In this document: one piece after another, positions 4,150 through 21,377 of the stretch
Position numbering within the stretch: position 1 is the stretch's first letter
How the letters are laid out: every line of letters begins with the position of its first letter
Sequence record: PZ179881.1
DNA length: 41,801 nucleotides
Origin: a phage
Strand: one strand, 5' to 3'
Program-made: the position numbers and the translations under genes
The notes under the pieces: generated by a model
Databases searched by the model: none
What the model was told of the DNA's origin: nothing
Seen by the model: the letters and a program-made list of their open reading frames with translations, nothing else

Positions 4150-4190
4150 AACGGGGAGCCTGCCGGATAACCGGGGAGCGAACCGGGGAG
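4150..4190 (+). repeat. Three direct copies of AACsGGGGAG
   Basis: AACGGGGAG (4150-4158), AACCGGGGAG (4169-4178), AACCGGGGAG (4181-4190); flanked by further CCGGGT / GGGTTA-rich repeats to about 4460. Confidence 0.5.
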
Positions 4191-4503: not shown

Positions 4504-4527
4504 CTGAATTGGCACCCCTATAGTAAC
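4504..4527 (+). promoter_or_regulatory. Phage RNAP promoter (CTGAATTGGCACCCCTATAGTAAC) in terminal/leader region
   Basis: One of four near-identical + strand copies of yTGAwTTGGCACyCCTATAG; resembles the SP6/K11 class of single-subunit RNAP promoters (xxCACTATAG core); predicted +1 at the final G (4523). Confidence 0.65.
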
Positions 4528-4565
4528 AGAACGGTCGAATGCGGCTTGTGTATCTGTTACGGCGG

Positions 4566-4770
4566 TAACCCGGAGGGAAGGGAGGGAGGAGAGAGACACG
4601 GGAGAGAGTAACCCAGAGAGGAGACTACCCGGAGAGACTACCCAGAGCATAGCCCAGAGGTTAGCACCCAGAGAGTAACCCAGAGGAGAGCAACCCGGAT
4701 AAGCTAACCCGGTTAACAGACACGGAGAGCAAGCCAGAGAGTAACCCGGCATAGCATAACCCGGAGAGCT
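4566..4770 (+). repeat. Array of about 13 short purine-rich direct repeats (CCCrGAGAG-type units, period about 12-13 bp)
   Basis: Visible tandem units such as ACCCAGAGAG, CCCGGAGAG, CCCAGAGGAGAG, often followed by TAA or CTA; starts about 40 nt downstream of the phage promoter at 4504. Confidence 0.6.
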
Positions 4771-4805
4771 ACCGCCTATAGTAAACCCGGCTAACCCTGG
4801 TTAAC

Positions 4806-4817
4806 CTGCACTCGCAA
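4806..4817 (+). repeat. Recurring hairpin motif copy 1 (CTGCACTCGCAA)
   Basis: Core GCACTCGCA, potential TGC-ACTC-GCA stem-loop; intergenic, ~30 nt upstream of the sigma70-like promoter. Confidence 0.5.
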
Positions 4818-4848
4818 AGGGTATCTGTAAATAATTTCTAAAAGAGTG

Positions 4849-4878
4849 TTGACACGGGCTAATCAGTATTGCTATAGT
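4849..4878 (+). promoter_or_regulatory. Sigma70-type host promoter candidate (early)
   Basis: TTGACA (4849-4854), 18-bp spacer, TGcTATAGT extended -10 (4870-4878); AT-rich stretch upstream (4826-4846). Confidence 0.5.
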
Positions 4879-4988
4879 TCACATCGTCGAAGGGCAACAC
4901 GGAAACGGATAGCCCAGAGATACCCGGTCAAGCGGGTTAAGTAGACAGCCTGCTCAGTCATACGAACAACAGGCACTTGACAAGATGT

Positions 4989-5029
4989 GATGTAACGTAG
5001 TACCTTAGTAACCGATGTAACGCAGTACC
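4989..5029 (+). repeat. 16-bp direct repeat pair GATGTAACGyAGTACC
   Basis: Copies at 4989-5004 and 5014-5029 differ at one position; between a TTGACA box (4977-4982) and the first early ORF; candidate protein-binding site. Confidence 0.45.
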
Positions 5030-5088
5030 GCTCTTTAACAATCCGGGTAATCTATCAAGTGATGCCGTCTAACAATGAGGGTAACACG

Positions 5089-5400
5089 ATGGAATTAAAG
5101 AAACAGTTGACACGCTATAAACGCAGTGCTAACGTAGAAAAGCTCCACCAGACGCTAAGCGCTGAGGCGATGCAGAAGGATGGGCAAGCGGCACGACGCC
5201 GCAAGAAACAGCTAAGCGAGCGGCTTTACATTCCGCAAGTTATAAGCTCTAATGACTTCTCCGATAAGGGGAACATGCGCAAGACGGCAGCTAGGAGCAA
5301 TCAGGGCAACGTCCGCGCCATCGGCAATAAGACCGATGTTAAGATTAACAGCTATTGGTCAAGTAAACGCGGCGATAACATGCCGAAAGATAAAGGTTGA
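5089..5400 (+). CDS. Hypothetical early protein (very basic, low complexity)
   Basis: ATG at 5089 with GAGGG 7 nt upstream (track ORF 5059 begins at an upstream GTG); first ORF after the terminal promoter region; coding status less certain because composition looks atypical. Confidence 0.45.
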   Translation: MELKKQLTRYKRSANVEKLHQTLSAEAMQKDGQAARRRKKQLSERLYIPQVISSNDFSDKGNMRKTAARSNQGNVRAIGNKTDVKINSYWSSKRGDNMPKDKG

Positions 5401-5453
5401 CAGCTACGGCGTCACCTGATAGATTACCCGGACAGTTAGCCAGTGACCGCAAC

Positions 5454-5465
5454 CCGCACTCGCAA
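5454..5465 (+). repeat. Recurring hairpin motif copy 2 (CCGCACTCGCAA)
   Basis: Core GCACTCGCA flanked by AACCC ... GGGTT, which can extend the stem; in the ORF-free gap. Confidence 0.5.
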
Positions 5466-5936
5466 GGGTTCAAACGGTTGAGTCACTGAGTTAACAAATC
5501 GCTTGACACTAAGCGATAACATGATGTAAAGTGATTACCGAGTTGACACGATGTTGGTGTCCTCCACGGCAGGGCGAGTAAACAGCCAGCCGATGCGCAG
5601 TCCTCCGGCGCGATGAGTCCTACGGGACGGTAGATGGGGAGGCCGAGCTAGGATTTAGGTCACATAAAATAATCCGAAGGGTGTGTGGCGAGCATTACCG
5701 TCTTATAGTCGAAAGGCTCACGGTAGGAATCGCGGCAAAGGTTCTCTTATCCAGTCAGTACAGGGATAACGTCCGATGCCACCAACGAGATAACATCCAG
5801 AGACGCTGGACGGTTGGAACTGAGTACGCTTAACGGTGGAAATGGGAAGGCTTGCGTAGTGATGTTATCTGGTTGGTTAATGTAAGCGTCATTGATGTGA
5901 TGGCGCTGACTTTAACTAACAACTGAGGATATAATC

Positions 5937-6506
5937 ATGGCAACTGCAAAAATCAACTTCGCTAAACTGACCACCACTGAGCAGATGGACGCGGCAATCG
6001 CCAACGTAGCAGAACGCTCTAACCTGCTGCAAGCTGACATTCAGCACGTCGCTGTAGCTATCCTGTGCCACGCCTTCCGTACTGGCGACTACACTCGTGC
6101 TAACACGCTGCACGATGCGCTGGGTGCTGGTGTACGCCGCAAGGGTCTGGTAGCGTGGTTCAGCAAGGGTGGCCTCAAGGTGTCTGAGAAAGAGCAGGCA
6201 TTCGTGGGCTTTGAGCAAGACCTTGATGCCCTGCGTATCAAGGCTGAGAAGGGTGACGACAAGGCTAAGGCTAAGGTCGTGGCTCACCTCGACGCGATGA
6301 AGAAACAGAACTGGTGGGACATGAAGCCGGAGAATAGCTTCGCTGGCTTTGACTTTGAGGCTGAGGTTGCCCGCCTGATTAAACGTGCGCAGAAAGCCAT
6401 TGAGAAGGATGGCGCTACGCCTTCCGATGCTAAGGGTGAGGACTACAAAATGACTGTGACGCCTGAGAAGCTGGCCCAGCTCAAGGCTCTGGTAGGTGCA
6501 GCATGA
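5937..6506 (+). CDS. Hypothetical early protein
   Basis: 189-aa ORF, GAGGA 7-8 nt upstream of ATG; no recognisable motif. Confidence 0.7.
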   Translation: MATAKINFAKLTTTEQMDAAIANVAERSNLLQADIQHVAVAILCHAFRTGDYTRANTLHDALGAGVRRKGLVAWFSKGGLKVSEKEQAFVGFEQDLDALRIKAEKGDDKAKAKVVAHLDAMKKQNWWDMKPENSFAGFDFEAEVARLIKRAQKAIEKDGATPSDAKGEDYKMTVTPEKLAQLKALVGAA

Positions 6507-6781
6507 TTAAGTCTATCAGCGTGGCGGTGCCTGAGCACCGCGCTGTACCCTGCAAGTCAAAGGTGAGCTGGTCGTCACCATTCCATAGCCGCGTGAAGTA
6601 TGAGGAGTACCTCAAGCGCTATGACTATGTGGTGGGTGTCAATGGTGTGGCGTTTATCACCCGCACCTTGAAGCATAACGGCCTCGTGATGATTGCGACG
6701 GTCAAGGTGTACTTTGAGAATGCACCTGTGGTAGAGTTCAGCTATGCGCCAAGTCATGCGCTGCTGGAATCCCTTGCGTAA
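6503..6781 (+). CDS. Hypothetical early protein
   Basis: 92-aa ORF whose ATG overlaps the upstream stop (ATGA), suggesting translational coupling. Confidence 0.6.
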   Translation: MIKSISVAVPEHRAVPCKSKVSWSSPFHSRVKYEEYLKRYDYVVGVNGVAFITRTLKHNGLVMIATVKVYFENAPVVEFSYAPSHALLESLA

Positions 6782-6901
6782 TGTGTTTGGTGTGTGGTGC
6801 TGGTTAACTCCCGGCACCACTGACCACGACAACTACCTCCTGATGTATGGGTGGAATGTCAAGGTGACTCAATGGAGAAGGTGACAGGCCGATGGCTTGC
6901 T

Positions 6902-6912
6902 TGCACTCGCAG
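6902..6912 (+). repeat. Recurring hairpin motif copy 3 (TGCACTCGCAG)
   Basis: Intergenic, ~40 nt upstream of the ORF starting at 6951. Confidence 0.5.
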
Positions 6913-6950
6913 GCCATTATCATGTTCCCTAATGATGTGAGGATGTAACG

Positions 6951-7355
6951 ATGTTTACTGTATTCCTGAGCGCGTTCCGTGGTGAGCGCACGTTTGAGCA
7001 GAACGTACTGAAATCTGCTGAGCTGGCTTCCCTGCTGATTAATCAGGGCTATACGCCGGAAGTGGTGGCGGGATTCTACCCGGAGAACGGCGGCCAGACC
7101 GTGACGTTTGAGCAGTCCTACGCCGTGCGTGTTGAGACGTATGCTGAGTGCGTCAAGTTGGCACAACTGGCGGGCGATGCGTTCCAGCAGGAATGTGTCC
7201 TGGTGGTCGATGTGCTTGACCGCATGGCTGCATCGTACCTGTACCCGGCTGGTGACTCCACGACTGAGGGTTACCTGCGTCGCCAGACTGAGCAGCCAGA
7301 GGGTGCGCGTAGTCAGTGGCGCGGTGCGTGGTGGACTATTGAGGCGACTGCGTGA
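6951..7355 (+). CDS. Hypothetical early protein
   Basis: 134-aa ORF with GAGGA upstream of ATG. Confidence 0.65.
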   Translation: MFTVFLSAFRGERTFEQNVLKSAELASLLINQGYTPEVVAGFYPENGGQTVTFEQSYAVRVETYAECVKLAQLAGDAFQQECVLVVDVLDRMAASYLYPAGDSTTEGYLRRQTEQPEGARSQWRGAWWTIEATA

Positions 7356-7912
7356 TGTGGTGGGATTGTGGATTAGCGATATACGATACGCTCCGGTTTA
7401 TAGAGGATGTGAAGAAGATGGAGAAATTACATGGGGTTATGGCTACTCGCGGTCATTGTGTGGGTAATGGCGGTCTTCGCGGTCATTCGGTTGGTCGCTA
7501 TTTCCCGTGCGTGATTTACATGAAGGGTAACCCGTCACAGCTAACGTGGTGGGTGCGCCAGCCTAATGGCGTGGATGCTGGGCCGCATAAATCCTACGAG
7601 GAGGCGGCTATGACGGCGCACAGCTACAACACCGGGCAGTGTGAGGACACTATCCGGGAAGTGTACCTGATGAAGGTGCAAGTTAACGAGGACAAGGCTA
7701 CCGGGGAAACTGACTGCGTAGCCTACTGCATGGCGGAGGAGATACCCTTCGATGTGTACGGATTGTACGGCGTGACTCCCGAAGGGTTGAGCCTGCATCT
7801 GTGTGATTATGACCGCTACCCGGCAGCACGGAATGAGTTAGCCCGTGCGCAAGGTCTGGTAGCTGGTGGCCCTGTACTGTATCGTGACCTGCTGGAGGCA
7901 CTCAATGACTAA
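7355..7912 (+). CDS. Hypothetical early protein
   Basis: ATG at 7355 overlaps the upstream TGA; an alternative start at ATG 7418 has a better SD (GAGGATG... 7403-7407). Track ORF 7352 starts at GTG. Confidence 0.55.
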   Translation: MWWDCGLAIYDTLRFIEDVKKMEKLHGVMATRGHCVGNGGLRGHSVGRYFPCVIYMKGNPSQLTWWVRQPNGVDAGPHKSYEEAAMTAHSYNTGQCEDTIREVYLMKVQVNEDKATGETDCVAYCMAEEIPFDVYGLYGVTPEGLSLHLCDYDRYPAARNELARAQGLVAGGPVLYRDLLEALND

Positions 7913-8147
7913 GACACAACGCCGTATCAATAAGCGCAACCTGATTCGTAACAGCCGCCGCTACCGTGTGGTAACCGGGGAGGGTAACGGGCATTACTTT
8001 CCGGTCGGCACCATTGTACGCCATGCTGACGCTGAGCATTACGCTGATGTAGGCGGCTCTGAGTCAGAGAATAACTTCCTTGTCGTTGAGACAGGCAAGG
8101 TACGATTCCCACTCAAGCAGTGGGTAAGCCCGCGAGATATCGCATAG
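7905..8147 (+). CDS. Hypothetical early protein
   Basis: ATG 7905 preceded by GGAGG (7895-7899); in frame with track ORF 7866-8147, whose N-terminal extension is rejected. Confidence 0.55.
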   Translation: MTKTQRRINKRNLIRNSRRYRVVTGEGNGHYFPVGTIVRHADAEHYADVGGSESENNFLVVETGKVRFPLKQWVSPRDIA

Positions 8148-8164
8148 TAGGCTGGCCGAAGCGT

Positions 8165-8175
8165 TGCACTCGCAG
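8165..8175 (+). repeat. Recurring hairpin motif copy 4 (TGCACTCGCAG)
   Basis: Intergenic, flanked by AAGCG ... CGCTT, ~50 nt upstream of the ORF starting at 8223. Confidence 0.5.
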
Positions 8176-8222
8176 CGCTTTATCAAGCATACTAACTGAA
8201 TATGATGATGAGGATTTGATGT

Positions 8223-8450
8223 ATGAACCGCGTAGTTTACTCCACCGATGCCGCTCACCCTGCGTACCGCAACCCACTGGTCGAGCAACCTGCTGAATCC
8301 ATGCGGGAGTGGGAAGAACGCCCACGCCGCACAAAGCGCGAGTGCCGCGATGCACATAATGCGCTGAACATTGAGTACCGCCGCCGTGCCGCCGCGTGTG
8401 GCATGACCTTTGAGGGCTACCTTGCCCGCTTCAACATAACCCTGAAATGA
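8223..8450 (+). CDS. Hypothetical early protein
   Basis: 75-aa ORF, GAGGA 8 nt upstream. Confidence 0.6.
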   Translation: MNRVVYSTDAAHPAYRNPLVEQPAESMREWEERPRRTKRECRDAHNALNIEYRRRAAACGMTFEGYLARFNITLK

Positions 8451-8460
8451 GGATGTTAAT

Positions 8461-8988
8461 ATGACCCGCACTATCTACCCAGGCTTGAAAGTCCGCGTCC
8501 GTGATGATGCCGCTGGCGTTAATTCGTGGAACATCGGCAAGGTGGTTACCATCGCGCAGGTGTATGGTAATTGGGCGTTGTACTACTACGACGATAACCC
8601 GACCCGCTACCGCATGACGCTGTTTAACTTCTGGAATCGCTTCGAATCGCTCGAAGTGAAAGGCCCGTTCCCTGACGACGAGCCGCAGGTATTCAACGAT
8701 GTGCGCCAGGCACCGCTGGGTATGGTGCTGCGCTATGACCTCGACGGTGAAGCGCCTTCCCGTGGTGCTAAGTATCCGTATGTCGTCCGCCTGTACTCCG
8801 GGCTGCACGGCTGGTGTCGTAATCGTGGGGCATGGGTGCCGATTCCGGCAGACCACGAGGGCGCATGGCTGTTCAACCTGAAAGACGTGTGGCCTGTACC
8901 AGCGCAGTGGACTGAGGCATTCGAGTACCCGATGCCATCCAATGCAATCCTTTATGTTCAACGTGTAACGGGAGCTGACAATGCTTAA
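8461..8988 (+). CDS. Hypothetical early protein
   Basis: 175-aa ORF, GAGGA upstream; Trp/Tyr-rich, no recognised domain. Confidence 0.65.
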   Translation: MTRTIYPGLKVRVRDDAAGVNSWNIGKVVTIAQVYGNWALYYYDDNPTRYRMTLFNFWNRFESLEVKGPFPDDEPQVFNDVRQAPLGMVLRYDLDGEAPSRGAKYPYVVRLYSGLHGWCRNRGAWVPIPADHEGAWLFNLKDVWPVPAQWTEAFEYPMPSNAILYVQRVTGADNA

Positions 8989-9364
8989 CCGACTGACTTT
9001 AATCATCCGCCCGGCGTCCAGCTATCACGCCCAGATTAAGAAGATACTGACCGACGAACGCTTCGACCACCAGTTCGGCTCGTTGCAGGTAGAGAACGCT
9101 GATACCGGACACACGGAAGACGTGGTGCTGGTGACCTGCGTGGACTTCCACGATGTAGGCGTAGTGATTGAGAAGCTGCGCACCCGTATCAATCCGAGCT
9201 ACTATCTGGTTGATGCGAGCAAGGCGGTGTTCAGCTACCACCATGTTAACCGCAAGCTGACCGCGCTGGGTTATCTGTACCAGTCCGACGTGGTGCTTCA
9301 CACGTATAACCGCCACATCAAAGTAGGCGACACTAACTATTCATTCTGGGAGAGCAAAGCATGA
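8981..9364 (+). CDS. Hypothetical early protein
   Basis: 127-aa ORF, GGGAG upstream, overlaps neighbours by a few nt. Confidence 0.6.
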   Translation: MLNRLTLIIRPASSYHAQIKKILTDERFDHQFGSLQVENADTGHTEDVVLVTCVDFHDVGVVIEKLRTRINPSYYLVDASKAVFSYHHVNRKLTALGYLYQSDVVLHTYNRHIKVGDTNYSFWESKA

Positions 9365-9657
9365 GCAAGAAAGCAGACGCATTGAACGGGGCAAAGGCAC
9401 GTATCGTAACGCTGGAGCGAGCCTACGAAGGGCTTGAGGGTAAGTACGCCCAGCTTCAAGCGCGGGCTGTGGTGGCTGAGCGCCGCTTCGAGTCAGCGCT
9501 GAGTGAGCTGGAGAACAAACACGCAGAGCTGGCTAACTGCCGTGGCCTGAATACCAGCCTGATTAAGAAGCTGGAGACGGCTCGCATCTGGGCTGTGGTC
9601 TTCGGCCTGCTGCTGGTAACCACCATCGGAACAATCGCAGGAGGTGTGTTCGCATGA
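9361..9657 (+). CDS. Hypothetical small membrane protein (coiled-coil N-terminus, C-terminal TM anchor)
   Basis: 98 aa; heptad-like charged helix then C-terminal hydrophobic segment IWAVVFGLLLVTTIGTIAGGVFA; GGGAGAG upstream; ATGA overlap with upstream gene. Confidence 0.6.
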   Translation: MSKKADALNGAKARIVTLERAYEGLEGKYAQLQARAVVAERRFESALSELENKHAELANCRGLNTSLIKKLETARIWAVVFGLLLVTTIGTIAGGVFA

Positions 9658-10082
9658 GCACTGGCACCGCACTGGTTCACCCGGATACCGCCAAGCTAAC
9701 GCCTGATGAGCAGAAGAAGGGCATCTACCACTACACGCCGCCAGAGGTTCTGGCGTTTAACAATGGCGAGCGCCTGACGGAGGACGACCTTGAAATCGTC
9801 AAGAAATTCTACGGTGGAGTTATCCCCAACATTACGCCGCATGACGTACCGGATGCGATACCCGCAGCTCCAGCAAATCCCGCGCCGCGACGTGTCGAAG
9901 CAAGCCCTGCACTCGCAGCACCTTACGGCGGTGCAAAGCGATTAGTGCGGCGGCGCACGGTGCAACCGGGGGCGGTGCCGCTGGTTGATATCACGAAACA
10001 ACTGGCAGCTAACCTGTCAGAAGATGATGCGTGGGCCGTACTGGTCACGCTGGCTCAACGATTCGATTTAGAGGTAGAGTAA
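9654..10082 (+). CDS. Hypothetical early protein (Pro/Ala-rich linker)
   Basis: 142-aa ORF with AGGAGG 9 nt upstream. Confidence 0.6.
   Translation: MSTGTALVHPDTAKLTPDEQKKGIYHYTPPEVLAFNNGERLTEDDLEIVKKFYGGVIPNITPHDVPDAIPAAPANPAPRRVEASPALAAPYGGAKRLVRRRTVQPGAVPLVDITKQLAANLSEDDAWAVLVTLAQRFDLEVE
9907..9918 (+). repeat. Recurring hairpin motif copy 5 (CTGCACTCGCAG)
   Basis: Inside ORF 9654-10082. Confidence 0.45.
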
Positions 10083-10083
10083 C

Positions 10084-10410
10084 ATGGCCAAGACCTTCAA
10101 GATTAACGCAAACTTCACCGCAACCCTGAGCCTGCAAACTGCTGGCGTTGATGAGTATGTCCGCGCCATCCGTGAAGCCGATGAGGTCGGCGAAATGGGT
10201 GAGTTCAGCAAGCGTCTGGTGAGCCTGCTGGACGAAGGCAAGACCGACGAGGCGCTGGTGATGCTGTTCAAGCACGGCATCCGCGCTGGCCTGAAAGACC
10301 TGGGTGACCAGCTCAACAACGAACTGCTGGAAGACCACGGCAAGTTCAAACACGCCCCGGCTACGGTATCCGTAGTCCCTGCAACCCCTCTCAATGTTGA
10401 CGCGGAGTAA
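10084..10410 (+). CDS. Hypothetical early protein (acidic)
   Basis: 108-aa ORF, GAGG upstream. Confidence 0.6.
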   Translation: MAKTFKINANFTATLSLQTAGVDEYVRAIREADEVGEMGEFSKRLVSLLDEGKTDEALVMLFKHGIRAGLKDLGDQLNNELLEDHGKFKHAPATVSVVPATPLNVDAE

Positions 10411-10415
10411 TGACG

Positions 10416-10673
10416 ATGAATGCGATTAAATTCCTGACTAACCTGCTGGTCAAGGCGTACCAGAAAGAAGCTGCCCGCGTACAGGCCGAGGCCGACAAGC
10501 TGGCGCAGGCACAAGCCGCCGAAGCGCTGAATGCAGTAGAGCTGGCGAAGGCTGCCGAGGTAGCCCGCGAGCAATCCGTAGAGCTGGGCCGTCAGAAGAC
10601 CGCCGCAGCCGACCGCGCCGCAGGCATCGCTGCCCGTGGCAAACAAGTTGAAGCCTTCTTCCTGGGAGAGTAA
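10416..10673 (+). CDS. Hypothetical protein (Ala-rich coiled coil)
   Basis: Track ORF 10410-10673; second in-frame ATG at 10416 has better SD spacing (GGAG 10403-10406). Confidence 0.5.
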   Translation: MNAIKFLTNLLVKAYQKEAARVQAEADKLAQAQAAEALNAVELAKAAEVAREQSVELGRQKTAAADRAAGIAARGKQVEAFFLGE

Positions 10674-10677
10674 GCGA

Positions 10678-10902
10678 ATGGAAATCATCAAAGTAGAAAT
10701 CATCTTCAAGCACACGCTGGCTGATAAAGTCAAGAACCTGTTCCGCCCGAAGGCCAAGCGCTTCCCGGCAGTCGCAACCTTCACCGGGTTCGATGCGGCG
10801 AGCCATAGCACTCAGGGTGTGCGGGTACGCTGGGGCCAGAACGCCTACCACTACCCGTGGCATCAGGTGAAACGTCTCAAGCTGACGTACAAGCCGGAGT
10901 AA
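10678..10902 (+). CDS. Hypothetical protein
   Basis: ATG 10678 preceded by GGGAGAG; in frame with track ORF 10636-10902, whose N-terminus would overlap the upstream gene. Confidence 0.5.
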   Translation: MEIIKVEIIFKHTLADKVKNLFRPKAKRFPAVATFTGFDAASHSTQGVRVRWGQNAYHYPWHQVKRLKLTYKPE

Positions 10903-10910
10903 TACAGCTA

Positions 10911-10933
10911 CAGGGTGGCGCTGTGCTGCCCTG
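10911..10933 (+). terminator. Hairpin at the early/replication boundary (possible terminator or processing site)
   Basis: CAGGGTGGC-GCTGT-GCTGCCCTG (9-bp stem with two G-U pairs) followed by a T-containing run TGTCGGTGTT; between the last early ORF and primase. Confidence 0.3.
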
Positions 10934-10962
10934 TGTCGGTGTTAATCCGTGAGGTAATGGTA

Positions 10963-11631
10963 ATGGCTAGACAGATTGAGAAACGGCTCTGGTTGCCGCA
11001 GGCGCGGCTTCTTCCCGTTGGTCATGACGATAAGATAATCCACAAAGGGTGTGGTGATAGACCGTCGCTGTTCATCAAGAACGACGACGATAAGTATTGG
11101 TGCTTCTGCCACCGCTGCCACGGCGGTGACTTCATGCCGAAGACATTGCAGCGAGTCAAGCAGAAGCTGGCACCTAAAACCGGATGGGTGCCGGAGGATA
11201 TCATCCCGCTTATGGATGCGGTGGTGAGTGAGCCTTACAACTTCCGTGAAATCTTCGAACGATATAGGATTAGTCCTTATGTTTCAATTCTTCGGTTTGC
11301 GCGTGATACGAAACGCATATACCTTCCTGATTCATCTGGTTCGCTCATGGGCCTGGATGCTACGGGGCAGGCCATTGCCCGGTTCTATTCCCCGCACAAG
11401 CGAAACCTGGCGGTATTCTATGGTGACAATCCTGGTAGCCTTGTTGTTACTGGAGGCATTGAGGAGTATCTTACTCGTTGCAAGGCTAATGAGTCCGCAA
11501 TCCTGGTGATGAACCGGGCCGCTGAGAAGGCCGCACTTGCAGAGCTTTCGAAGGGTTCGTATACGAATCTGGTCGAAGGCAAGTTTCTTAAAGACGGGTT
11601 CAAGCGTGACCTGCGAATGTTCAAGGAGTAA
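10963..11631 (+). CDS. DNA primase (zinc-ribbon plus primase core)
   Basis: Cys4 zinc-binding motif CGDRPSLF...CFCHRCHGG near N-terminus; lies directly upstream of helicase; start chosen at ATG 10963 (GAGG 8 nt upstream) rather than track GTG 10915, which falls inside a hairpin. Confidence 0.6.
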   Translation: MARQIEKRLWLPQARLLPVGHDDKIIHKGCGDRPSLFIKNDDDKYWCFCHRCHGGDFMPKTLQRVKQKLAPKTGWVPEDIIPLMDAVVSEPYNFREIFERYRISPYVSILRFARDTKRIYLPDSSGSLMGLDATGQAIARFYSPHKRNLAVFYGDNPGSLVVTGGIEEYLTRCKANESAILVMNRAAEKAALAELSKGSYTNLVEGKFLKDGFKRDLRMFKE

Positions 11632-12878
11632 TGATGTTAGATAAACTGCTGGTAGCAACACTGGCTGACCGCACACGATACAAGGCGCTGGCTAAGCAGG
11701 TGCCTCTGGGTGAGCTGGGGACGTCAACCGAGTGGCTCATCAAGTCGTTCGGCACGTTCTTCGACCGTAACCCGGAGGCGAAGCAGGTCGATTATGATGT
11801 GCTCCGCACGATGGCGCGGCTCAAGCTGGAGAATCAGGAGTCTGCCCCGGTGCTGACGCTGATTGACAAGGCGGCGGAGATTAAGGTCACGCCGGAACAA
11901 ATCAACAACACGTCCCTGATGCTGATGGAGCAGGGCTACGCCGGGCGAGTCGCTACACTGGTTAACCGATACCAGGACGGCGAGGAGCTGGACATTAGCC
12001 ACGAGCTTTACAAAGAGACGATGGCGATGCGCAAGCAGATTGGCGCGTCGGCTGAAACCATGTTTGAGGAGCCGGATATCCATGAGATACTTGCTGAGCA
12101 AGCTCGTGACGAAGGCCTTAAATTCCGACAGACTTGTTTGCAGGAGTTCATCAAAGGTCTTATGCCCCCGCTGTCAGTTGCTTTCTGTGCTGGAGTGGAC
12201 TCTGGTAAGACCTCGTTCCTCTGCGACGCCCTCACCTACTTCGCGCCGCAGGCGGAGAAGCTCTGGCCAGGCCGCCCGATACTCTGGTTCAGCAACGAAG
12301 GCGTCGTCCGCGAAATCTGGCCTCGTCTCTACTCCGCTGCCCTCGGAATGGATGGGAAGAAGTTAGCCCACATGCCAGCGCGTGACCTGTATAAGAAGTA
12401 CGAGGATGCGCTGGGCGGCAACCGCCACAAGATTAAGCTGAAAGATGCACACGGCTGGTCACTGGCTCAGGTAGCCGGGGTGGTTGAGGAGATGAATCCA
12501 ATCATCGTCGTGTTCGACATGCTGGCTAACTTCAAGTTACCCGGCGTGGAGAAGCGCCACGAGAAGATGGAGGCGTTGTTCCAGGAGGTGCGTGAGATGG
12601 CAGCGCTGCATGACTTCATCGCTATCAGCACCGTCCAGTTGAGCGCCGAGGGTTACGACATGCTGTACCCGCCAGGCACCGCATTGAAGGATGCGAAGAT
12701 TGGTATTCAGGGTGCGCTGGATATCCAGATTAACATGGGCCGCTTGAACGACCAGGCTTACGAGGCGATTCGCGGGTTCAGCCTGCCGAAGAACAAGCGT
12801 AAGATGGTAGGCAAGTCCAGTAACATGAAGGCTGAGGTGTTGTTCCAGCCTGACTTAGCGAGGTTTATTGACAATTGA
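11631..12878 (+). CDS. Replicative DNA helicase (DnaB/T7 gp4 helicase-domain-like)
   Basis: 415 aa; Walker A-like AGVDSGKTSF; AAGGAG upstream; ATG overlaps primase stop. Confidence 0.75.
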   Translation: MMLDKLLVATLADRTRYKALAKQVPLGELGTSTEWLIKSFGTFFDRNPEAKQVDYDVLRTMARLKLENQESAPVLTLIDKAAEIKVTPEQINNTSLMLMEQGYAGRVATLVNRYQDGEELDISHELYKETMAMRKQIGASAETMFEEPDIHEILAEQARDEGLKFRQTCLQEFIKGLMPPLSVAFCAGVDSGKTSFLCDALTYFAPQAEKLWPGRPILWFSNEGVVREIWPRLYSAALGMDGKKLAHMPARDLYKKYEDALGGNRHKIKLKDAHGWSLAQVAGVVEEMNPIIVVFDMLANFKLPGVEKRHEKMEALFQEVREMAALHDFIAISTVQLSAEGYDMLYPPGTALKDAKIGIQGALDIQINMGRLNDQAYEAIRGFSLPKNKRKMVGKSSNMKAEVLFQPDLARFIDN

Positions 12879-13048
12879 ATCAGGACATAACTATCTGCCA
12901 GTGCAGCCGCATGTACGACGACCTGACAATGCAGGTGATTTATAGAACATGCAAGCGCTGCACAATGCGCAAAGAGGAGGCGGCTAAGGCCGCTGTCCGT
13001 AACGCACCGATTAAACGTCTGCAATTACTGGAGGACATTCATGGTTAA
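12875..13048 (+). CDS. Possible small zinc-ribbon protein (uncertain, non-ATG start)
   Basis: Not in ORF track (<60 aa). Frame open from 12872; TTG 12875 would give 57 aa containing C-x-C...C-x2-C (ICQCS...RTCKRC); an ATG at 12911 would give 45 aa lacking the first Cys pair; weak SD. Confidence 0.25.
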   Translation: MNQDITICQCSRMYDDLTMQVIYRTCKRCTMRKEEAAKAAVRNAPIKRLQLLEDIHG

Positions 13049-13232
13049 TATTCAGCAAGTAGTTGAGATTGCTAAAGAAACCCACGGTGGCAAGGATATG
13101 TTCTTGCATGAGCTGGCTGAGGGTATGTGTGGTGCATTCCGCTGTGAAGGGCTGCATTGTTCGAACTGTCCGTTTAACAACGGGGACGCTCTGAAAGAGC
13201 ACATCATTGAATTGGCGGGAGAACTGGCATGA
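13041..13232 (+). CDS. Small Cys-rich hypothetical protein
   Basis: 63 aa with GGAGGA 6 nt upstream; Cys cluster CGAFRCEGLHCSNCP. Confidence 0.55.
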   Translation: MVNIQQVVEIAKETHGGKDMFLHELAEGMCGAFRCEGLHCSNCPFNNGDALKEHIIELAGELA

Positions 13233-14134
13233 GCAGCTTAACCGTAATGAAGGGCGTGGCGTTCACGCAGAAGCGCCTGCTGCAATGGCTCAAGGAGGAC
13301 GGCAAGGTAGTCGTCCAGACTAAGCGCGACGAGATTCGTTGTGTGGCTAAGGTGGAAGACACTGGCGTAACCTACACCAGCGCCAGCGGCAAGCCCCTCT
13401 ACAACATACACCAGGCGTTCAGCAACCTGTTCACCATGCTGTTTGAAATGACAGGGCTGACGAAGTTCGACATGGGTGTGAGCGTGAACAACTCCTTCGA
13501 CTTGACGAAGCGTGTAGTTCGTGCTAGCAAGAAGCAGTACGACTGCCGTGGCCAGATTGAGTACGAGTTCTGGGACGGCACGAAGAAGAATCCGATTCAC
13601 GTCTACACCGGGCCGCTCACTATGGAGTTCTGGCTGTATGACCTGCCGGAGCTGGGGTGGAAGCCCTACGAAGAACGCCGGAAGATGATGGCTGAGCTGT
13701 GCCGCATGGCAGGTAACAGCCTGTTCTGCCCGGAGACAGAGGTGGTGACCAGCGAGAAGGATGTGTACCAGATACACGACATGCTCATCGGCCTGGGCCA
13801 CGAAGGTACAATGGTCAAGCGCTTCGACCACCGCTACACCGAAGGCCGGACAGTAGACTGGATGAAGTTGAAGCCAGAGGATGAAGTTGATGTGGAAATT
13901 ATCGGCTACACGCCAGGAGAGAACGGCTTCGAAGGAATGGTGGGGTCGCTTATCGGCAGAGCAGAGGACGGCAGCACTGTCAGTTTTAGCGGATTTACGC
14001 TTGAGCTTCGACGGGAACTCACTGATAATTTTGAAGCGTATCGTGGACGCTGGGCCGAGGTTCGCTATATGCAGCGCGATTCTCAAGGCGGCTACCGCCA
14101 CCCGCGCTTCTACCGCTGGCACCCCGATAAGTAA
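13229..14134 (+). CDS. ATP-dependent DNA ligase
   Basis: 301 aa; nucleotidyltransferase-like motifs (LKEDGK / KRDEIR region, EGTMVKR, DWMKLKP, C-terminal RHPRFYRWHPDK); position before DNAP as in phiKMV-type genomes. Motif I is atypical, so moderate confidence. Confidence 0.65.
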   Translation: MSSLTVMKGVAFTQKRLLQWLKEDGKVVVQTKRDEIRCVAKVEDTGVTYTSASGKPLYNIHQAFSNLFTMLFEMTGLTKFDMGVSVNNSFDLTKRVVRASKKQYDCRGQIEYEFWDGTKKNPIHVYTGPLTMEFWLYDLPELGWKPYEERRKMMAELCRMAGNSLFCPETEVVTSEKDVYQIHDMLIGLGHEGTMVKRFDHRYTEGRTVDWMKLKPEDEVDVEIIGYTPGENGFEGMVGSLIGRAEDGSTVSFSGFTLELRRELTDNFEAYRGRWAEVRYMQRDSQGGYRHPRFYRWHPDK

Positions 14135-14199
14135 TCCACGGGAAATACCAGAGGACGCGAAGTTCCCTAAAGACTGGCACTTGACAGGGTGGAATTGAC

Positions 14200-16668
14200 A
14201 TGGCTATGAAATGCCTGATTCACGACTGTGAAACAGAAACTAACCCGTGGTATGGACAGGTGGCATCGCCGTACTGCCCGGATAACTACGTGGTTGAGGA
14301 CGCCTGGGAGACGGTAACCCTGGGCGGTGAGGTGGAGATTAGCCCGCGTACCGACCGCCGCTACAACTCGCTTGAGGAGTGGAAGGGCAACTGGTCTGTG
14401 GACTTCTCCGGGATTGATATCTACGTGGCCCACAATGCTGCGTATGAAATGAGCTGGTTACTGGAGCACGACTATGATAACTTCATGGCGTTTCTCAAAC
14501 GTGGTGGTCGTGTTTATTGTACCGCTTACGCTCACTATCTACTCAGCAACATGCAGGACACTTACCCCGCGCTTAACGACGTTGCACCAATCTACGGCGG
14601 TACGCCAAAGGTGGATGCAGTCAAGGCACTATGGGAAGCTGGCGTTAAAACGTCGGATATTGACCCGGCGCTACTTCGGGAGTATCTGTTCGGGCCTAAC
14701 GGCGATATCGCCAACACCACCAAAGTTTTCCTGGGAACGTGGTCGGAGCTTGTTAGACGTAACATGTTGAAGATGGCGCTGGTGCGCATGGATGGCCTGC
14801 TGTTCTCTGCCATCTGTATGCACCACGGCTTGAAGGTTGACATGGAGGTAGCGGAGCGTGACCGCAGCCGTAACGAGCGGTTGCTGGAAGGCCTGCACTC
14901 GCAGGTGATTCAGTATCTGCCAGCGGATATGCCCGCCGAAGCCCGTGCGCAGTTCACCGGGACACGCTTCCAGTTGTCGGCGTTCATCTTCGGTGGCGCT
15001 ATGAAGTACACGGCGCGAGTACCGCGTGAGGATGCCGACGGCAATCCCATCTACGTGAAGAAGGAAGGGCCGTACTTCAAGAGCATCAAAGGAGCGCTGC
15101 CAGAGAGCGCCTGCATGTTCGACGAGGAGGCAGGTGGCCTTTGGTATTCCCCGGAGCTGAAAGAGCACCAGGCGCGTTACACGGCAGGTAAGAACAAAGG
15201 CCTGCCGAAGTTCGATAAGTATGTGACCGACGAGGTTGATACGAAGAACGGCGACCTGCTGTATCACTTCCCCGGCCTGCTGTCTGAGGAGGTGCAGGAG
15301 AAGCTGAGCCTGGCGATTGAGGGTGAGTGGTCTGGTAGCCAGAAGCTGCAAGACGGCAGCCCGGTAATCAGCACCAGTGGTGACGTGTTGGATGTGCTGG
15401 CGGCGCACGACGTGCCAGTAGCTAAGTTGTTGAAAGATATCGGGAAGATTGATAAAGACCTCGGTGCATTCTACATCAAGCGCACGTTCAACAAAGATGG
15501 CAGCTTGAAGAAAGAAGGCGGCATGTTGCAGTACGTGCAGCCGGACGGCTTCATTCACCACACGCTGAACCACACGAGCACCGTGACGGCGCGACTCAGC
15601 TCGAACAAGCCGAACCTCCAGCAGTTACCACGAGCGGAGGAAGCGCGGGACGAGAACGAGTTCAAGTCCACGGTTAAGGAAATGTTCGTGAGTCGCTTCG
15701 GTGACGACGGCGGCATCCTCCAGGAGGACTACAGCGCACTGGAGACGGTTGGTTTGCAGGTGTTGACCCGCGACGTTAACCTCAAGGCTGCGCTGCTCAA
15801 AGGCCTGGACATGCACTCTATGCGCCTCGCGGCGATGGAGAACCAGACCTATGAGTACGTGGTGGCGCGTACCAAAGACGACACGCACCCTGAACACGCT
15901 GAGTGGGACGTGAAGCGTACAGGCGTTAAGCCAGTTGCATTCCAGTATCAGTATGGTGCGACGGCTTACGGCATGGCGATGAGCACTGGTAAATCCCAGG
16001 ACTTCTGCCAGGCGTTCATTGACGCGGAGAAGAAGGCGTTCCCCGGCGTTGAGGACTGGTACGACAACACGGTGTACCCGACGGTGGAAGCGACGGCAGC
16101 GCAGAACAAGCCTATCCGTGTGCAGCTCGACGACGGGCGTTACGTTATGTTCGGCTGGGGTACGTTCACTACCCACGACGGCACGACGTATCAGTTCCGC
16201 CAGCAGAGCAAGCAGCGTTGGAATCCGGTGACTAAGAAGCGTGAGGAAGTCAAGGAGTTCACGGTGCCGCAGATGCGTAACTACCCGATTCAGGGCGCAT
16301 CCGGTTTCTTCGTGCAGCTCGCTTGCGGTATGCTGATTCGTCACTTCATCGCCAACGACTTCTACGGTGGCAAGTGCCTGCCGATTAACACGGTTCACGA
16401 TGCGTGTTACTTCGACACTCACAAAGACGTAGTGTACCAGGCAGCGTATGAGGTGGAGGCCATCATGGAATCCATCCCGGAAATGCTGAATGCACTGTGG
16501 CCTGCGTATCAGTGTGAGGTGCCGTTCCCGGTGGCAGGTGGCTTCGGTAAGAACATGGCCGAGGAGCACCACGTTTACGACAAGGATAGCAAAGACCTGT
16601 TCAAACAGCAGAAAGCGAACTTCAAGAAAGAGTTCCTTGCTAAGAAGGGTATCGCGGTTCAATTCTGA
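14200..16668 (+). CDS. DNA polymerase (family A, with 3'-5' exonuclease domain)
   Basis: 822 aa; exo-like HDCETETNPWYG near N-terminus; pol I-type motifs (SSNKPNLQQLPR, NYPIQGASG, VHDACYFD). Confidence 0.9.
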   Translation: MAMKCLIHDCETETNPWYGQVASPYCPDNYVVEDAWETVTLGGEVEISPRTDRRYNSLEEWKGNWSVDFSGIDIYVAHNAAYEMSWLLEHDYDNFMAFLKRGGRVYCTAYAHYLLSNMQDTYPALNDVAPIYGGTPKVDAVKALWEAGVKTSDIDPALLREYLFGPNGDIANTTKVFLGTWSELVRRNMLKMALVRMDGLLFSAICMHHGLKVDMEVAERDRSRNERLLEGLHSQVIQYLPADMPAEARAQFTGTRFQLSAFIFGGAMKYTARVPREDADGNPIYVKKEGPYFKSIKGALPESACMFDEEAGGLWYSPELKEHQARYTAGKNKGLPKFDKYVTDEVDTKNGDLLYHFPGLLSEEVQEKLSLAIEGEWSGSQKLQDGSPVISTSGDVLDVLAAHDVPVAKLLKDIGKIDKDLGAFYIKRTFNKDGSLKKEGGMLQYVQPDGFIHHTLNHTSTVTARLSSNKPNLQQLPRAEEARDENEFKSTVKEMFVSRFGDDGGILQEDYSALETVGLQVLTRDVNLKAALLKGLDMHSMRLAAMENQTYEYVVARTKDDTHPEHAEWDVKRTGVKPVAFQYQYGATAYGMAMSTGKSQDFCQAFIDAEKKAFPGVEDWYDNTVYPTVEATAAQNKPIRVQLDDGRYVMFGWGTFTTHDGTTYQFRQQSKQRWNPVTKKREEVKEFTVPQMRNYPIQGASGFFVQLACGMLIRHFIANDFYGGKCLPINTVHDACYFDTHKDVVYQAAYEVEAIMESIPEMLNALWPAYQCEVPFPVAGGFGKNMAEEHHVYDKDSKDLFKQQKANFKKEFLAKKGIAVQF
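14892..14905 (+). repeat. Recurring hairpin motif copy 6 (CCTGCACTCGCAGG)
   Basis: Perfect 5-bp stem CCTGC/GCAGG with ACTC loop, inside the DNA polymerase gene. Confidence 0.45.
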
Positions 16669-21296: not shown

Positions 21297-21377
21297 CTGG
21301 TGCTTTAGACAATGGGTGTCCACGGGTAACGTGGACTACCTGCAATTATATCATGAGTGGAAGGGCAGAGGATACTG

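Follow-up and report, generated by a model that had tools for sequence, protein, structure and literature searches.

A one-strand motif in a Cronosvirus genome

What kind of signal is repeated along one strand of the early region of a T7-like Cronobacter phage? The window, i.e., the whole stretch analysed here (PZ179881.1, 41,801 nucleotides), is the complete genome of a GAP227-like Cronosvirus (Autographiviridae, Melnykvirinae). A sequence-only reading had placed GCACTCGCA at 4808, 5456, 6903, 8166, 9909 and 14895, always in the same orientation, and proposed that it acts at the RNA level. An exhaustive count of the window found exactly these six copies, all on the + strand, while the − strand has no copy; 100 dinucleotide-preserving shuffles gave a mean of 0.71 copies over both strands (maximum 4), and none of the 100 reached six. 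The 11-mer said to be common to four copies, TGCACTCGCAG, was also found (6902, 8165, 9908 and 14894), and the 12-mer CTGCACTYGCAG occurs four times versus 0.02 expected. Three one-base variants on the + strand, CCGCACTTGCAG near the 3′ end of the primase gene (11531-11542) and CTGCACTTGCAG within gp23 (18698-18709) and within the portal gene (26351-26362), bring the total to nine copies with the consensus (C)YGCACTYGCA(G/A). Non-coding DNA makes up 5.8% of the genome, yet it holds four of the nine copies (p ~6e-4, computed for four of eight before the ninth was added). The copies crowd the left end, become sparser rightwards and are missing from the right third. The motif is asymmetric and strictly strand-specific and, as previously stated, is not a DNA palindrome. 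In summary, a recurrent one-strand motif of 10-12 bases is confirmed as real in the window.

The distribution of the six exact copies over four intergenic sites and two genes was also as claimed. Copy 1 (CTGCACTCGCAA, 4806-4817, followed by TATCTGTAAAT) is intergenic, downstream of the phage promoter at 4509-4527; the first sigma70-like promoter (4849-4878) has its -35 box 33 nt further downstream. Copy 2 (CCGCACTCGCAA, 5454-5465) is intergenic after gp01; relative to the start site of the 5397-5425 promoter it lies at about +25, and it precedes the 5503-5532 promoter by 39 nt. It is surrounded by a larger stem-loop (5435-5495) with the outer stem CAGTGAC (5441-5447)/GTCACTG (5482-5488). Copies 3 and 4 share the motif TTGCACTCGCAG (6901-6912 and 8164-8175). 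The hairpin of copy 3 (6891-6918, outer stem ATGGC/GCCAT; CM score 36.1 bits, E 1.4e-8) begins 16 nt past the preceding gene's stop codon and ends 38 nt ahead of the start of gp04 (methyltransferase), and that of copy 4 (8158-8181, 10-bp stem, ACTC loop; CM score 41.9 bits, E 2.4e-10) begins 16 nt past the gp06 stop codon and ends 47 nt ahead of the gp07 start. Downstream of both come UUAUCA and a ribosome-binding module, ACUAAC-GAGG, that is conserved. The two genic copies share CTGCACTCGCAG: copy 5 (9907-9918) lies within gp11 in the frame GCA CTC GCA (Ala-Leu-Ala), with pairing limited to a 4-bp core stem, and copy 6 (14893-14904) lies at codon 232 of the DNA polymerase gene, as CTG CAC TCG CAG (Leu-His-Ser-Gln).

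Hairpins at the intergenic copies

The stem-loop potential noted earlier for each copy is real but differs between copies. The copies at 6903 and 8166 have 10-bp stems (-21.5 and -18.8 kcal/mol, z -2.9 and -2.5), that at 5456 lies within a 60-nt structure (-25.4 kcal/mol, z -4.69, 0 of 200 shuffles) and the DNA polymerase copy folds well (z -3.2), but the copies at 4808 and 9909 do not exceed shuffles. Folding is clearly poorer on the complementary strand. Among 24 distinct intergenic copies from about ten genera, 83.8% of cells are paired compared to 73.1% in shuffles (0 of 500 shuffles reach the observed values), and seven of the ten stem pairs vary on both sides. The long stems contain seven G.T wobbles and no A.C pairs and so fit the + strand only, and the outer stem around copy 2 shows compensatory changes in relatives (AAGTGAC/GTCACTT and AGGTGAC/GTCACCT). 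The intergenic copies form the tip of 9-10 bp hairpins backed by compensatory changes, which supports their being true single-strand hairpins.

The genic copies behave differently, with pairing outside the core at the control level (mean 1.71 pairs versus 1.67). In the DNA polymerase copy of K59PH2 and in all Spp16 copies, the 10-mer is kept with at most 2-4 bp of pairing, and A8 and G9 of the motif are retained even where their pairing partners are lost. Since the genic copies keep the sequence in differing reading frames and without extra pairing, the sequence is the invariant feature.

Conservation across Melnykvirinae

The search of related phages that had been suggested as a check found the motif in every Melnykvirinae genome examined, including phages otherwise without nucleotide similarity. 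GCACTYGCAG is on the gene-sense strand only in all 35 loci with a match, and in 12 genomes GCACTCGCA occurs 62 times in sense versus twice in antisense and GCACT[CT]GCAG 73 times versus none; the Salmonella phage Spp16 has five sense and no antisense copies, with pairing of 2-3 bp. The copies lie at similar positions across genera (~2, 5, 8-9, 12-13, 25-27 and 52-53% of the genome), and a T(T) is kept 11 bp, one helical turn, from the motif centre. The primase site is kept in GAP227, Dev-CD-23823, PP2, Arno160, Spp16, phi80-18 and fHe-Yen3-01, and the gp23 site in GAP227, Kc318 and Dev-CD-23823, while the portal copies of PP2 and Ahp1 lie at different codon positions but at a similar genome position (~52-53%). 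The DNA polymerase site has orthologues in PP2, phiAS7, K59PH2 and Ahp1, in two reading frames: it encodes LHSQ in Cronosvirus and PP2, and in the other frame AALAE in Ahp1 and AALAD in K59PH2.

Nick sites of other phages and a DNA end within the motif

A comparable motif is known from phiKMV-like phages, whose nick consensus, as quoted by later papers, is 5′-CGACxxxxxCCTA/CTCCGG-3′ (Kulakov et al. 2009, cited in PMC3517423, PMC3604761 and 10.1101/619015). We found this consensus on the sense strand of phiKMV exactly at three features annotated "putative bacteriophage specific promoter", all of them intergenic, and the real promoters of LUZ19 are a motif other than the nick consensus (PMC10914365; PMC3604761). 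In both cases, a short asymmetric motif is present on the sense strand only, in a few copies per 42-kb genome, with sites directly after stop codons and 40-50 nt ahead of the next gene, and the genome layout has the RNAP gene closing the DNA-metabolism block. Both motifs were first called phage-specific promoters in silico, the true RNAP promoters being a different motif after the RNAP gene, and both have an ACTC core with a break, mapped or inferred, between A and C. In contrast, the sequences are unrelated outside this core, phiKMV has three or four copies where the window has nine that are strongly left-skewed, over half of the window copies are inside genes, and the phiKMV sites lack the covarying hairpins of the intergenic copies.

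The second precedent, from another phage family and with another sequence, is the nick-associated motif TACT/RTGMC (WACTRTGAC) of tf, Rembedalsseter and their relatives (PMC3517423; PMC11780129). This 9-mer is likewise confined to one strand, with 9-14 copies versus ~0.7 expected, is kept in sequence and position among phages of little nucleotide similarity, clusters towards one genome end and occurs within coding sequences (PMC3517423, PMC11780129). In tf, 11 of 14 nicks lie within the genome's left half (PMC3517423), and the nick motifs of tf-like phages behave likewise (PMC11780129). Unlike the window motif, those of the tf type show no enrichment in non-coding DNA, and their descriptions mention no hairpins. 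The nicks of phiKMV have been mapped and those of tf-type phages shown by ligase-sensitive denaturing gels, primer extension and nanopore coverage, whereas we infer those of Melnykvirinae from one contig end.

This end belongs to Aeromonas phage ZPAH7, whose GenBank record (30,791 bp) is truncated within the DNA polymerase gene. In sense orientation, the record opens with CTCGCAGGTGTTTGAC, which corresponds exactly to GCA|CTCGCAG of the DNA polymerase copy, and its other end falls at the experimentally annotated terminal-repeat boundary of phiR8-01 and phi80-18. The ZPAH7 library was prepared by mechanical shearing (PMC6406118), which is reported to break DNA at nicks (PMC7291057). The complete break in the assembly is not fully explained in this way, since reads from the intact strand should bridge a mere nick. 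None of the other Logan, ENA and JGI contigs examined ends at a motif. The physical support for nicks in Melnykvirinae is a single contig end from one laboratory.

Alternative explanations for the motif

The main rival to a nick site, which we consider possible but on balance doubtful, is an RNA-level hairpin on the early and middle transcripts, in which a YUGC/GCAG stem carries an ACUC loop and which a conserved protein or RNase would recognise; it might serve in intercistronic processing, in 3′-end protection of the upstream mRNA or in regulator binding, and the genic copies would be weaker versions stabilised by protein. The compensatory changes, the long stems with G.U-type wobbles on the better-folding strand, the placement between stop codon and next start, the downstream ribosome-binding module, the enrichment in non-coding DNA and the place of copy 2, on top of a larger covarying stem close to the start of a sigma70 transcript, all point this way. 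The long stems, compensatory changes, + strand-only wobbles and nested copy 2 are more natural for RNA and count against a nick site, as do the non-coding bias, which tf-type motifs do not have, the restriction of the likeness with phiKMV to the ACTC core and the fact that phiKMV and tf nick sites need no hairpin. T7 early RNase III sites and T4 C(UUCG)G intercistronic hairpins are similar in that they are sense-strand stem-loops between early genes of a lytic phage, sitting just past a stop codon and ahead of the next ribosome-binding site, with several per genome. However, the window stems, at 9-10 bp, fall short of the length for RNase III, the loop, ACUC, is not known as a stable tetraloop, the sequence also recurs within ORFs without a stem, and the loop and stem top are conserved across genera while the lower stem is not. 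The hairpins have no U-tract and hence are not intrinsic terminators, and a search of Rfam gave no matching family. The RNA reading is also weakened by genic copies without pairing beyond 4 bp, by single copies deep in portal and tail genes at non-orthologous codons, by the conservation of A8 and G9 where pairing is lost and by the mere 2-3 bp formed by the K59PH2 DNA polymerase site and all Spp16 copies, which are still strictly sense-strand and enriched; nor does it explain the ZPAH7 DNA end. Of the RNA-level element originally proposed, the strand specificity and the intergenic hairpins stand, but strand bias does not imply RNA, because the genic, Spp16 and K59PH2 DNA polymerase copies keep the 10-mer with only 2-4 bp, the nucleotides of the DNA polymerase site are conserved although it is read in two frames, the nearest, phiKMV-type, precedent is a mapped DNA nick site and one public assembly ends exactly within the motif.

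Readings based on transcription are weaker. It is improbable that the motif is a recruitment or pause signal for host RNAP, acting in exposed non-template DNA (like ops/RfaH) or in nascent RNA (like lambda nut boxB with N). Lambda nut (boxA plus boxB, with N) and ops/RfaH are sense-strand antitermination signals acting on host RNAP over long operons, and are similarly small (12-15 nt) with a short hairpin. The window copies are sense-strand only and mostly precede the phage RNAP gene, in a region where the search gave no phage promoter between that at 4509-4527 and the RNAP gene, and the 12-nt core mini-hairpin is about the size of the transcription bubble, although the long stems exceed it. 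A perfect, rrn-type boxA, GCTCTTTAACAA (5030-5041), is present in the gp01 leader and kept in all relatives infecting Enterobacterales; in phi80-18 and fHe-Yen3-01 it is followed 20 nt later by the motif hairpin and then by g01, which is the lambda pL-nutL-N order. The window boxA, however, is not beside any copy, and lambda-type systems need one nut site per operon, not nine dispersed ones; copies are also found in late genes transcribed by the phage RNAP, and there is no sequence similarity to boxB or ops. Homologues of gp01 are present in every motif-bearing phage and absent from phiKMV and LIMElight, but this could be mere shared clade ancestry, and gp01 has no match to N, Q or the NusG/RfaH family, which leaves it outside the known antiterminator families. 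Very unlikely is a signal of the T7 class II type, at which the phage RNAP would pause or terminate in a sequence-specific manner; a hairpin (class I type) would reinforce the intergenic copies, and late read-through into early and middle genes would be limited. In T7, the class II signal is ATCTGTT with a downstream U run, which the conserved block, 4 nt and T(T) resemble, the copies share one direction and cluster in the early region, and true ATCTGT elements lie at the terminal-repeat boundary and beside copy 1. These elements, however, already fill the role, the T/U stretch is merely 2-3 nt, copies lie within late-transcribed genes (portal, and tail genes in relatives), and the ZPAH7 end is again left unexplained. 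We give almost no credence to a promoter for the phage-encoded RNAP, as annotated from a PHIRE prediction in Aeromonas phage Ahp1, where TCCCTGCACTCGCAGAGGGT and four similar sites are given as "phage promotors" (PMC5014404, Table 3). The motif is repeated, directional and often ahead of genes, as T7-like single-subunit RNAP promoters are, and is picked up by the same motif-search programs. This candidate was rejected, as TTGGCACCCCTATAGYAAC, present four times in the window, is orthologous to an experimentally validated Cronosvirus RNAP promoter. Of the four copies of the separate T7-like motif TTGGCACYCCTATAGYAAC, one is just to the right of the terminal repeat, one follows the RNAP gene, and one each precedes the capsid and the tail-fibre gene. 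In the congeneric Dev-CD-23823, the orthologue AATGTATACCCCTATATACAC has been validated by experiment as the minimal promoter of the RNAP (PMC12272871), and phi80-18 carries an equivalent (PMC7316996). The hairpin motif, of only 10-12 nt, is not upstream of late genes and sits inside ORFs, and the analogous phiKMV "promoters" turned out to be nick sites. The hairpin motif is not the phage promoter.

A candidate strand-specific nick site

The best of the explanations, in which we have roughly even confidence, is that the motif marks strand-specific nicks, with GCA|CT(C/T)GCAG as the site, comparable to those mapped in phiKMV. This reading is favoured by the strand exclusivity and excess of the motif, by the invariance of its sequence rather than its pairing, by the DNA polymerase site kept as nucleotides in two frames, by the T(T) one helical turn from the centre, by the similar, left-dense positions across genera, as in phage tf, by the phiKMV nick consensus at features annotated as promoters, and by the physical DNA end of ZPAH7 between A and C of the motif. 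The motif would then be an asymmetric site at which DNA is recognised and nicked in a site- and strand-specific way, a counterpart of the phiKMV-like CGACxxxxxCCTA/CTCCGG and tf TACT/RTGMC consensus, with the sense (non-transcribed) strand cut as 5′-(C)YGCA|CT(C/T)GCAG-3′ to give "localized single-strand interruptions". The predicted breaks are between 4810 and 4811 (copy 1), 5458 and 5459 (copy 2), 6905 and 6906 (copy 3), 8168 and 8169 (copy 4) and 14897 and 14898 (copy 6).

At the intergenic copies, the cut site would lie in the 4-nt loop of the + strand-folding inverted repeat, as an accessory layer that may expose the scissile ApC when the DNA is single-stranded or extruded. As RNA, the hairpin may instead stop the transcript from invading the nicked duplex and may protect the 3′ end of the upstream mRNA. 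A search for a nickase candidate found none; a putative phage-encoded nickase would cut the sites late in infection, and the nicks would be packaged. Transcription could pass them, since only the non-template strand would be cut, and the phage ligase (13229-14134) could reseal them. By analogy with T7, the left end, rich in copies, would enter the cell first.

Distribution and conservation of the motif

The DNA of the window is 94-95% identical to that of the Cronobacter phages EspYZU05 and GAP227 and encodes a T7-type terminase (1-1926), a family A DNA polymerase (14200-16668), an endonuclease VII (18927-19391) and a single-subunit RNA polymerase (RNAP, 21357-23828). Together, the DNA identity and the encoded polymerases and terminase therefore identify it as a complete Cronosvirus genome, with the taxonomy (Autographiviridae, Melnykvirinae) taken from the GAP227 record. 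All long ORFs are on the + strand.

The sequence-only reading had singled out a 9-mer, GCACTCGCA, that recurs in one orientation, and all six occurrences were recovered where it had placed them (+ 6, - 0): in four intergenic copies of the motif (C)YGCACTYGCA(G/A) (4806, 5454, 6901 and 8164) and in copies within gp11 and the DNA polymerase gene (14893, GCACTCGCAG). The excess that it had expected was also found, since six copies were reached in 0 of 100 shuffles (mean 0.71, both strands), and four copies do have TGCACTCGCAG in common; CTGCACTYGCAG is present four times in the window against 0.02 expected. Three one-base variants, likewise on the + strand, lie in the primase (11531-11542), gp23 (18698-18709) and portal (26351-26362) genes, and a covariance model built from relatives detected no hidden further copies in the window. 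Non-coding DNA makes up 5.8% of the genome, yet it holds four of the nine copies.

A search in related phages, which the same reading had proposed, found the motif on the gene-sense strand of every Melnykvirinae genome fetched. These were GAP227, Kc318, EspYZU05, EspYZU13 and Dev-CD-23823, the Pectobacterium phages PP2 and Arno160, the Yersinia phages phiR8-01, ISAO8, phi80-18 and fHe-Yen3-01, the Aeromonas phages Ahp1, CF7-like, phiAS7, ZPAH7 and LAh1, Serratia phage Kaonashi, Klebsiella phage K59PH2, Salmonella phage Spp16 and several metagenomic contigs. The motif was seen in Cronosvirus, Wanjuvirus, Ahphunavirus, Aerosvirus, Pienvirus, Aghbyvirus, Panjvirus and K59PH2. Twelve complete genomes contain GCACTCGCA 62 times in sense versus twice in antisense orientation, and GCACT[CT]GCAG 73 times versus none; every match to GCACTYGCAG in 35 loci is on the sense strand. 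The motif is the commonest 9-mer of the whole genome in PP2 and in phiR8-01; it is absent from LIMElight, and phiKMV has one copy, which is the chance level.

In a logo, 97 distinct instances give (g)(c)C-T-GCACT-C/t-GC-A-G-NNNN-T-T, with higher conservation in the 3' half than in the 5' half and the T(T) located 11 bp from the motif centre. The position pattern along the genome is alike across genera, and the portal-gene copies, which fall at differing codons in three genera, all lie at ~52-53% of the genome. An artefact of codon usage or of a conserved peptide was rejected because the copies are in differing frames (ALA, LHSQ) and because the DNA polymerase site keeps its nucleotides while peptide and reading frame differ (LHSQ, AALAE, AALAD). 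By the counts in the window, the 12 genomes and the 35 loci, the motif is confined to one strand and far above chance, and both it and its rough positions are kept despite little nucleotide identity and whatever the coding context, as would be expected of a nick site.

Folding of the intergenic copies

The sequence-only reading had also held that each copy can form a short stem-loop. The intergenic copies bear this out and covary as hairpins; the copies inside genes show no pairing beyond the conserved CT/AG. Among 24 distinct intergenic copies, 83.8% of cells are paired, versus 73.1% in shuffles and 31-51% with slid partners, both sides have changed in 7 of 10 pairs and the covariation score is 0.372 versus 0.188, values that were reached in 0 of 500 shuffles. 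Compensatory substitutions, as in an RNA element, thus uphold the pairing of the intergenic copies only. In orthologous copies, the arms co-change upstream of gp07 (AAGCGTTGC/GCAGCGCTT versus TTAGCCCTGC/GCAGGGCTAA) and upstream of gp04 (ATGGC/GCCAT, AAGCG/CGCTT, ATGGG/CCCAT), and copy 2 (5454) sits at the tip of a larger stem, the two arms of which covary as well. Seven G.T wobbles occur in the long stems and A.C pairs in none, and folding is weaker for the complementary strand than for the + strand; therefore, the + strand or its transcript is what folds.

The 24 distinct in-gene copies show 1.71 pairs versus 1.67 in the control, and just 2-3 bp can form in the copies of Spp16 and in the DNA polymerase copy of K59PH2, which are still sense-only and enriched. 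The common denominator of the copies is the sequence, not the hairpin. None of the Rfam 15 covariance models matched anywhere in the window at E values up to 1, and the literature searched yielded neither transcriptomes nor mapped RNA ends for Melnykvirinae phages.

The two intergenic hairpins within 6880-6950 and 8150-8222 are part of a longer module, GGCCGAAGC..hairpin..GCTTTATCA(T/A)G..ACTAAC(TGA)..GAGG-ATG, which has stop codons in all three frames and, in an alignment of relatives, is repeated ahead of different early genes and in more than one genus. Repeated boundaries of this kind could mediate shuffling of early genes.

Terminal repeat and promoters

The window is rotated, beginning at the large terminase gene, and GAP227 coordinate 1 corresponds to window ~4612. 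The direct terminal repeat should, by analogy with the annotated repeats of phiR8-01 and phi80-18, have its right boundary at GGCCTAT^CTGTATC (4472/4473); its left end may lie near 4177 (region ~4177-4473), and the window probably contains one collapsed repeat copy. ATCTGT is found at 4470, 4552 and 4823, that is, at the repeat boundary, 25 nt downstream of the phage promoter at 4509-4527 and directly after motif copy 1, and these elements resemble the T7 class II pause/concatemer-junction element, ATCTGTT. An array of short imperfect repeats (ACCC(A/G)GAGAG, AACCCGG...; ~4570-4790) separates the leftmost phage promoter from motif copy 1 and recalls the short repeat arrays adjoining the T7 terminal repeats; the minus-strand ORF that overlaps it (4468-4752) is probably spurious.

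The phage RNAP promoter, TTGGCACYCCTATAGYAAC, is found on the + strand just right of the terminal repeat (4509-4527), after the RNAP gene (23916-23934), before the capsid gene (27367-27385) and before the tail-fibre gene (38669-38687). Its orthologue, AATGTATACCCCTATATACAC, is the minimal promoter of the congeneric Dev-CD-23823 RNAP in vitro (PMC12272871), an enzyme to which the window RNAP is 81% identical, and phi80-18 has an equivalent motif at equivalent places (PMC7316996). Weaker look-alikes are CCGCCTATAGTAAAC near 4771-4786 (~25 nt upstream of copy 1) and AACCCTATAGCGG near 23848. In the Ahp1 genome paper, sequences of the present motif are given as five 'phage promotors' that a PHIRE scan had predicted (PMC5014404). 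The motif does not show the cognate consensus ahead of late gene blocks that an RNAP promoter would have, and we rejected this reading because a separate promoter motif, TTGGCACYCCTATAGYAAC, fills the role and has an experimentally validated orthologue; it is essentially excluded.

An intrinsic terminator was rejected as well, as there is no U-tract (the RNA tails after the hairpins are UUUAUCA, AUUAUCA and similar) and no copy appeared in a terminator scan. Several candidates were dropped by eye, either for a misfit of spacing or sequence or because they left the covarying stems or the orientation unexplained: a sigma54 or sigma70 promoter within the motif, a TTATCA tail read as IHF or DnaA boxes, a mimic of the type I-F CRISPR repeat (CTGCC..GGCAG), a Chi-like site and a primase recognition site.

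Separately, ~400 nt (5533-5936) are without an ORF between a sigma70-like promoter (5503-5532) and gp02 (5937); another promoter-like site lies just before gp02 (5906-5935). All relatives have a gap of 350-570 nt at this place. The stretch 5533-5936, which had no Rfam match, could be a non-coding RNA or a long structured leader.

A DNA end at the motif and likeness to known nick sites

The GenBank 'complete genome' of the Aeromonas phage ZPAH7 (30,791 bp; NC_048133.1 / MH992513) breaks off inside the DNA polymerase gene and is an incomplete assembly: the left-hand ~11 kb are missing, and with them all early genes, the genes for primase, helicase and ligase and ~232 codons at the start of the DNA polymerase gene. 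MK330684 (ZPAH7B) is the same sequence, circularly permuted. In the sense direction the record starts with CTCGCAGGTGTTTGACTTGC, which puts its end precisely on the A^C bond of the motif copy in the DNA polymerase gene (GCA^CTCGCAG), a copy that is intact in phiAS7. The other end (...GGGCTA) coincides with the annotated terminal-repeat boundary of phiR8-01 (GGGCTAT^CTGTATC) and phi80-18. As one end is at the motif and the other at a terminal-repeat boundary, both contig ends look like physical DNA ends. By an estimate that was not computed, an arbitrary contig end would fall on the exact bond of one of ~8 copies with a probability of roughly 2/10,000. The ZPAH7 library was mechanically sheared (PMC6406118), a treatment that reportedly breaks phage DNA where it is nicked (PMC7291057).

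This evidence is indirect: it comes from the assembly of one phage, at one site, and it shows a DNA end rather than a ligatable nick in one strand. No other assembly ending at the motif was found among partial DNA polymerase proteins, in five Logan/ENA contig checks and in one metagenome scan, and LAh1 and several other records begin at author-chosen gene starts. A 579-aa polymerase (P0025) was rejected as such a contig end, being the product of a split gene. In the Logan contig ERR1950669 (42,617 bp), from a relative, the DNA polymerase is split into ORFs of 187, 579 and 233 aa with a 145-aa ORF between the last two, an arrangement which suggests that the insert may be an intron or a homing-endonuclease insertion.

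Localized single-strand nicks are a feature of phiKMV-type phages, in which a sense-strand sequence that behaves like the present motif, CGACxxxxxCCTA/CTCCGG, is the mapped nick site (PMC3517423; PMC3604761). In the phiKMV record, this consensus falls precisely on the three features labelled 'putative bacteriophage specific promoter', and the true promoters of LUZ19, as mapped with ONT-cappable-seq, have another motif, which lies downstream of the RNAP gene (PMC10914365). In KP34-like phages, the published 'phage promoter consensus' is AGCCTATAGCGTCCTACGGGGCGCTATGTGAA, for which the authors also raised a nick-site reading (PMC4411677). We observed that AGCCTATAGCGTCCTACGGGGCGCTATGTGAA is itself a hairpin, the two copies of which differ by compensatory changes (GCG/CGC versus GCA/TGC), with a + strand wobble pair. 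The nick motifs of tf-like phages (9-14 copies) resemble the Melnykvirinae motif in being on one strand, at conserved positions and clustered at one end. The break point that we infer, A^CTC, is at the position of the break in the phiKMV site; the latter is mapped, whereas the Melnykvirinae break is deduced here from a single contig end. A search of the early and middle proteins against PHROGs and Pfam found no nickase domain and no RNA-binding domain. We know of no nicking enzyme for phiKMV and tf, nor of a role for endonuclease VII in such nicking.

An rrn-type boxA and the basic protein gp01

A boxA on the + strand (GCTCTTTAACAA, 5030-5041), located in the 5' leader of gp01, the first of the early genes, matches the E. 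coli rrn boxA (TGCTCTTTAACAA) that binds NusB/NusE. A single sense boxA is kept at this place in GAP227, Kc318, EspYZU05, EspYZU13, Dev-CD-23823, PP2, Arno160, phi80-18, fHe-Yen3-01, phiR8-01 and Vibrio phage G1, with one-base variants in ISAO8, Kaonashi, K59PH2 and Spp16; none was found in Ahp1. These findings suggest that early transcription uses host Nus-factor antitermination. The window boxA has no motif hairpin after it, as a lambda-type nut site would, and boxA followed by the hairpin is seen only in phi80-18 and fHe-Yen3-01.

The gp01 product (5089-5400, + strand; 103 aa; phrog_9286) is very basic and of low complexity, with an invariant C-terminal KTDxxINSYxxxKRGDN(M/L)P. Homologues are present in every motif-bearing phage examined, including Vibrio phage G1 and Spp16, and in neither phiKMV nor LIMElight. 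In Ahp1, phiAS7 and phi80-18, the motif hairpin lies immediately upstream of the gp01 start codon.

Function of the motif

We rank first the reading of the motif as a strand-specific nick site, cut on one strand at GCA^CT(C/T)GCAG, and consider it evenly poised between right and wrong. It accounts for the sequence invariance and the independence of reading frame, as well as for the graded left-heavy distribution, the history of promoter mis-annotation and the ZPAH7 end. Its weaknesses are that there is one physical observation, with neither a nickase nor a second contig end found, and that the intergenic hairpins are superfluous for a duplex nick site. Those hairpins are what an RNA signal would explain, and this is a serious rival, compatible with nicking, though we regard it as rather doubtful; the covariation of the intergenic stems speaks for it, and the unpaired in-gene copies against it. 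A further, improbable reading is that hairpin-tipped nicks of the non-template strand act as swivels for transcription-driven genome entry.

It is improbable, in our judgement, that the motif serves a T7-like phage as the utilisation site of a processive system for antitermination or elongation control. In that case gp01 would bind the hairpin RNA, or the motif sequence in the exposed non-template strand, and with boxA-loaded host Nus factors would keep the host RNAP going over the ~17 kb to the phage RNAP gene, by an N/nut-like or RfaH/ops-like mechanism. The perfect rrn-type boxA in the gp01 leader and the clade-specific basic protein argue for such a system, the boxA of the window without its hairpin against it, and to our knowledge no such mechanism has been described for Autographiviridae.

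Implications

Apart from its listing as a putative promoter in Ahp1, our partial coverage of the literature brought up no phage-related mention of the motif, and none of its subfamily-wide conservation, the hairpin covariation, the link to a physical DNA end or the present reinterpretation. We would group it with the nick-associated motifs of phiKMV-type phages, among which its hairpin context is unusual. Regardless of nicks, the true RNAP promoters are now separated from the motif, and the rrn-type boxA bears on how the host RNAP reaches the distal phage RNAP gene. If the copies are nick sites, published 'phage promoter' annotations such as that of Ahp1 would be corrected, truncated or mis-terminated assemblies such as ZPAH7 would be explained and PhageTerm peaks could not safely be read as genome termini. 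A subfamily considered for therapy and biocontrol, with hosts in Cronobacter, Klebsiella, Yersinia, Aeromonas, Pectobacterium, Serratia and Salmonella, would then carry site-specifically nicked DNA. The motif would be a third, sequence-unrelated nick consensus in phiKMV-type phages and the first inside covarying hairpins, and it would offer a handle on the 50-year-old question of the purpose of phage nicks and of the enzyme that makes them.
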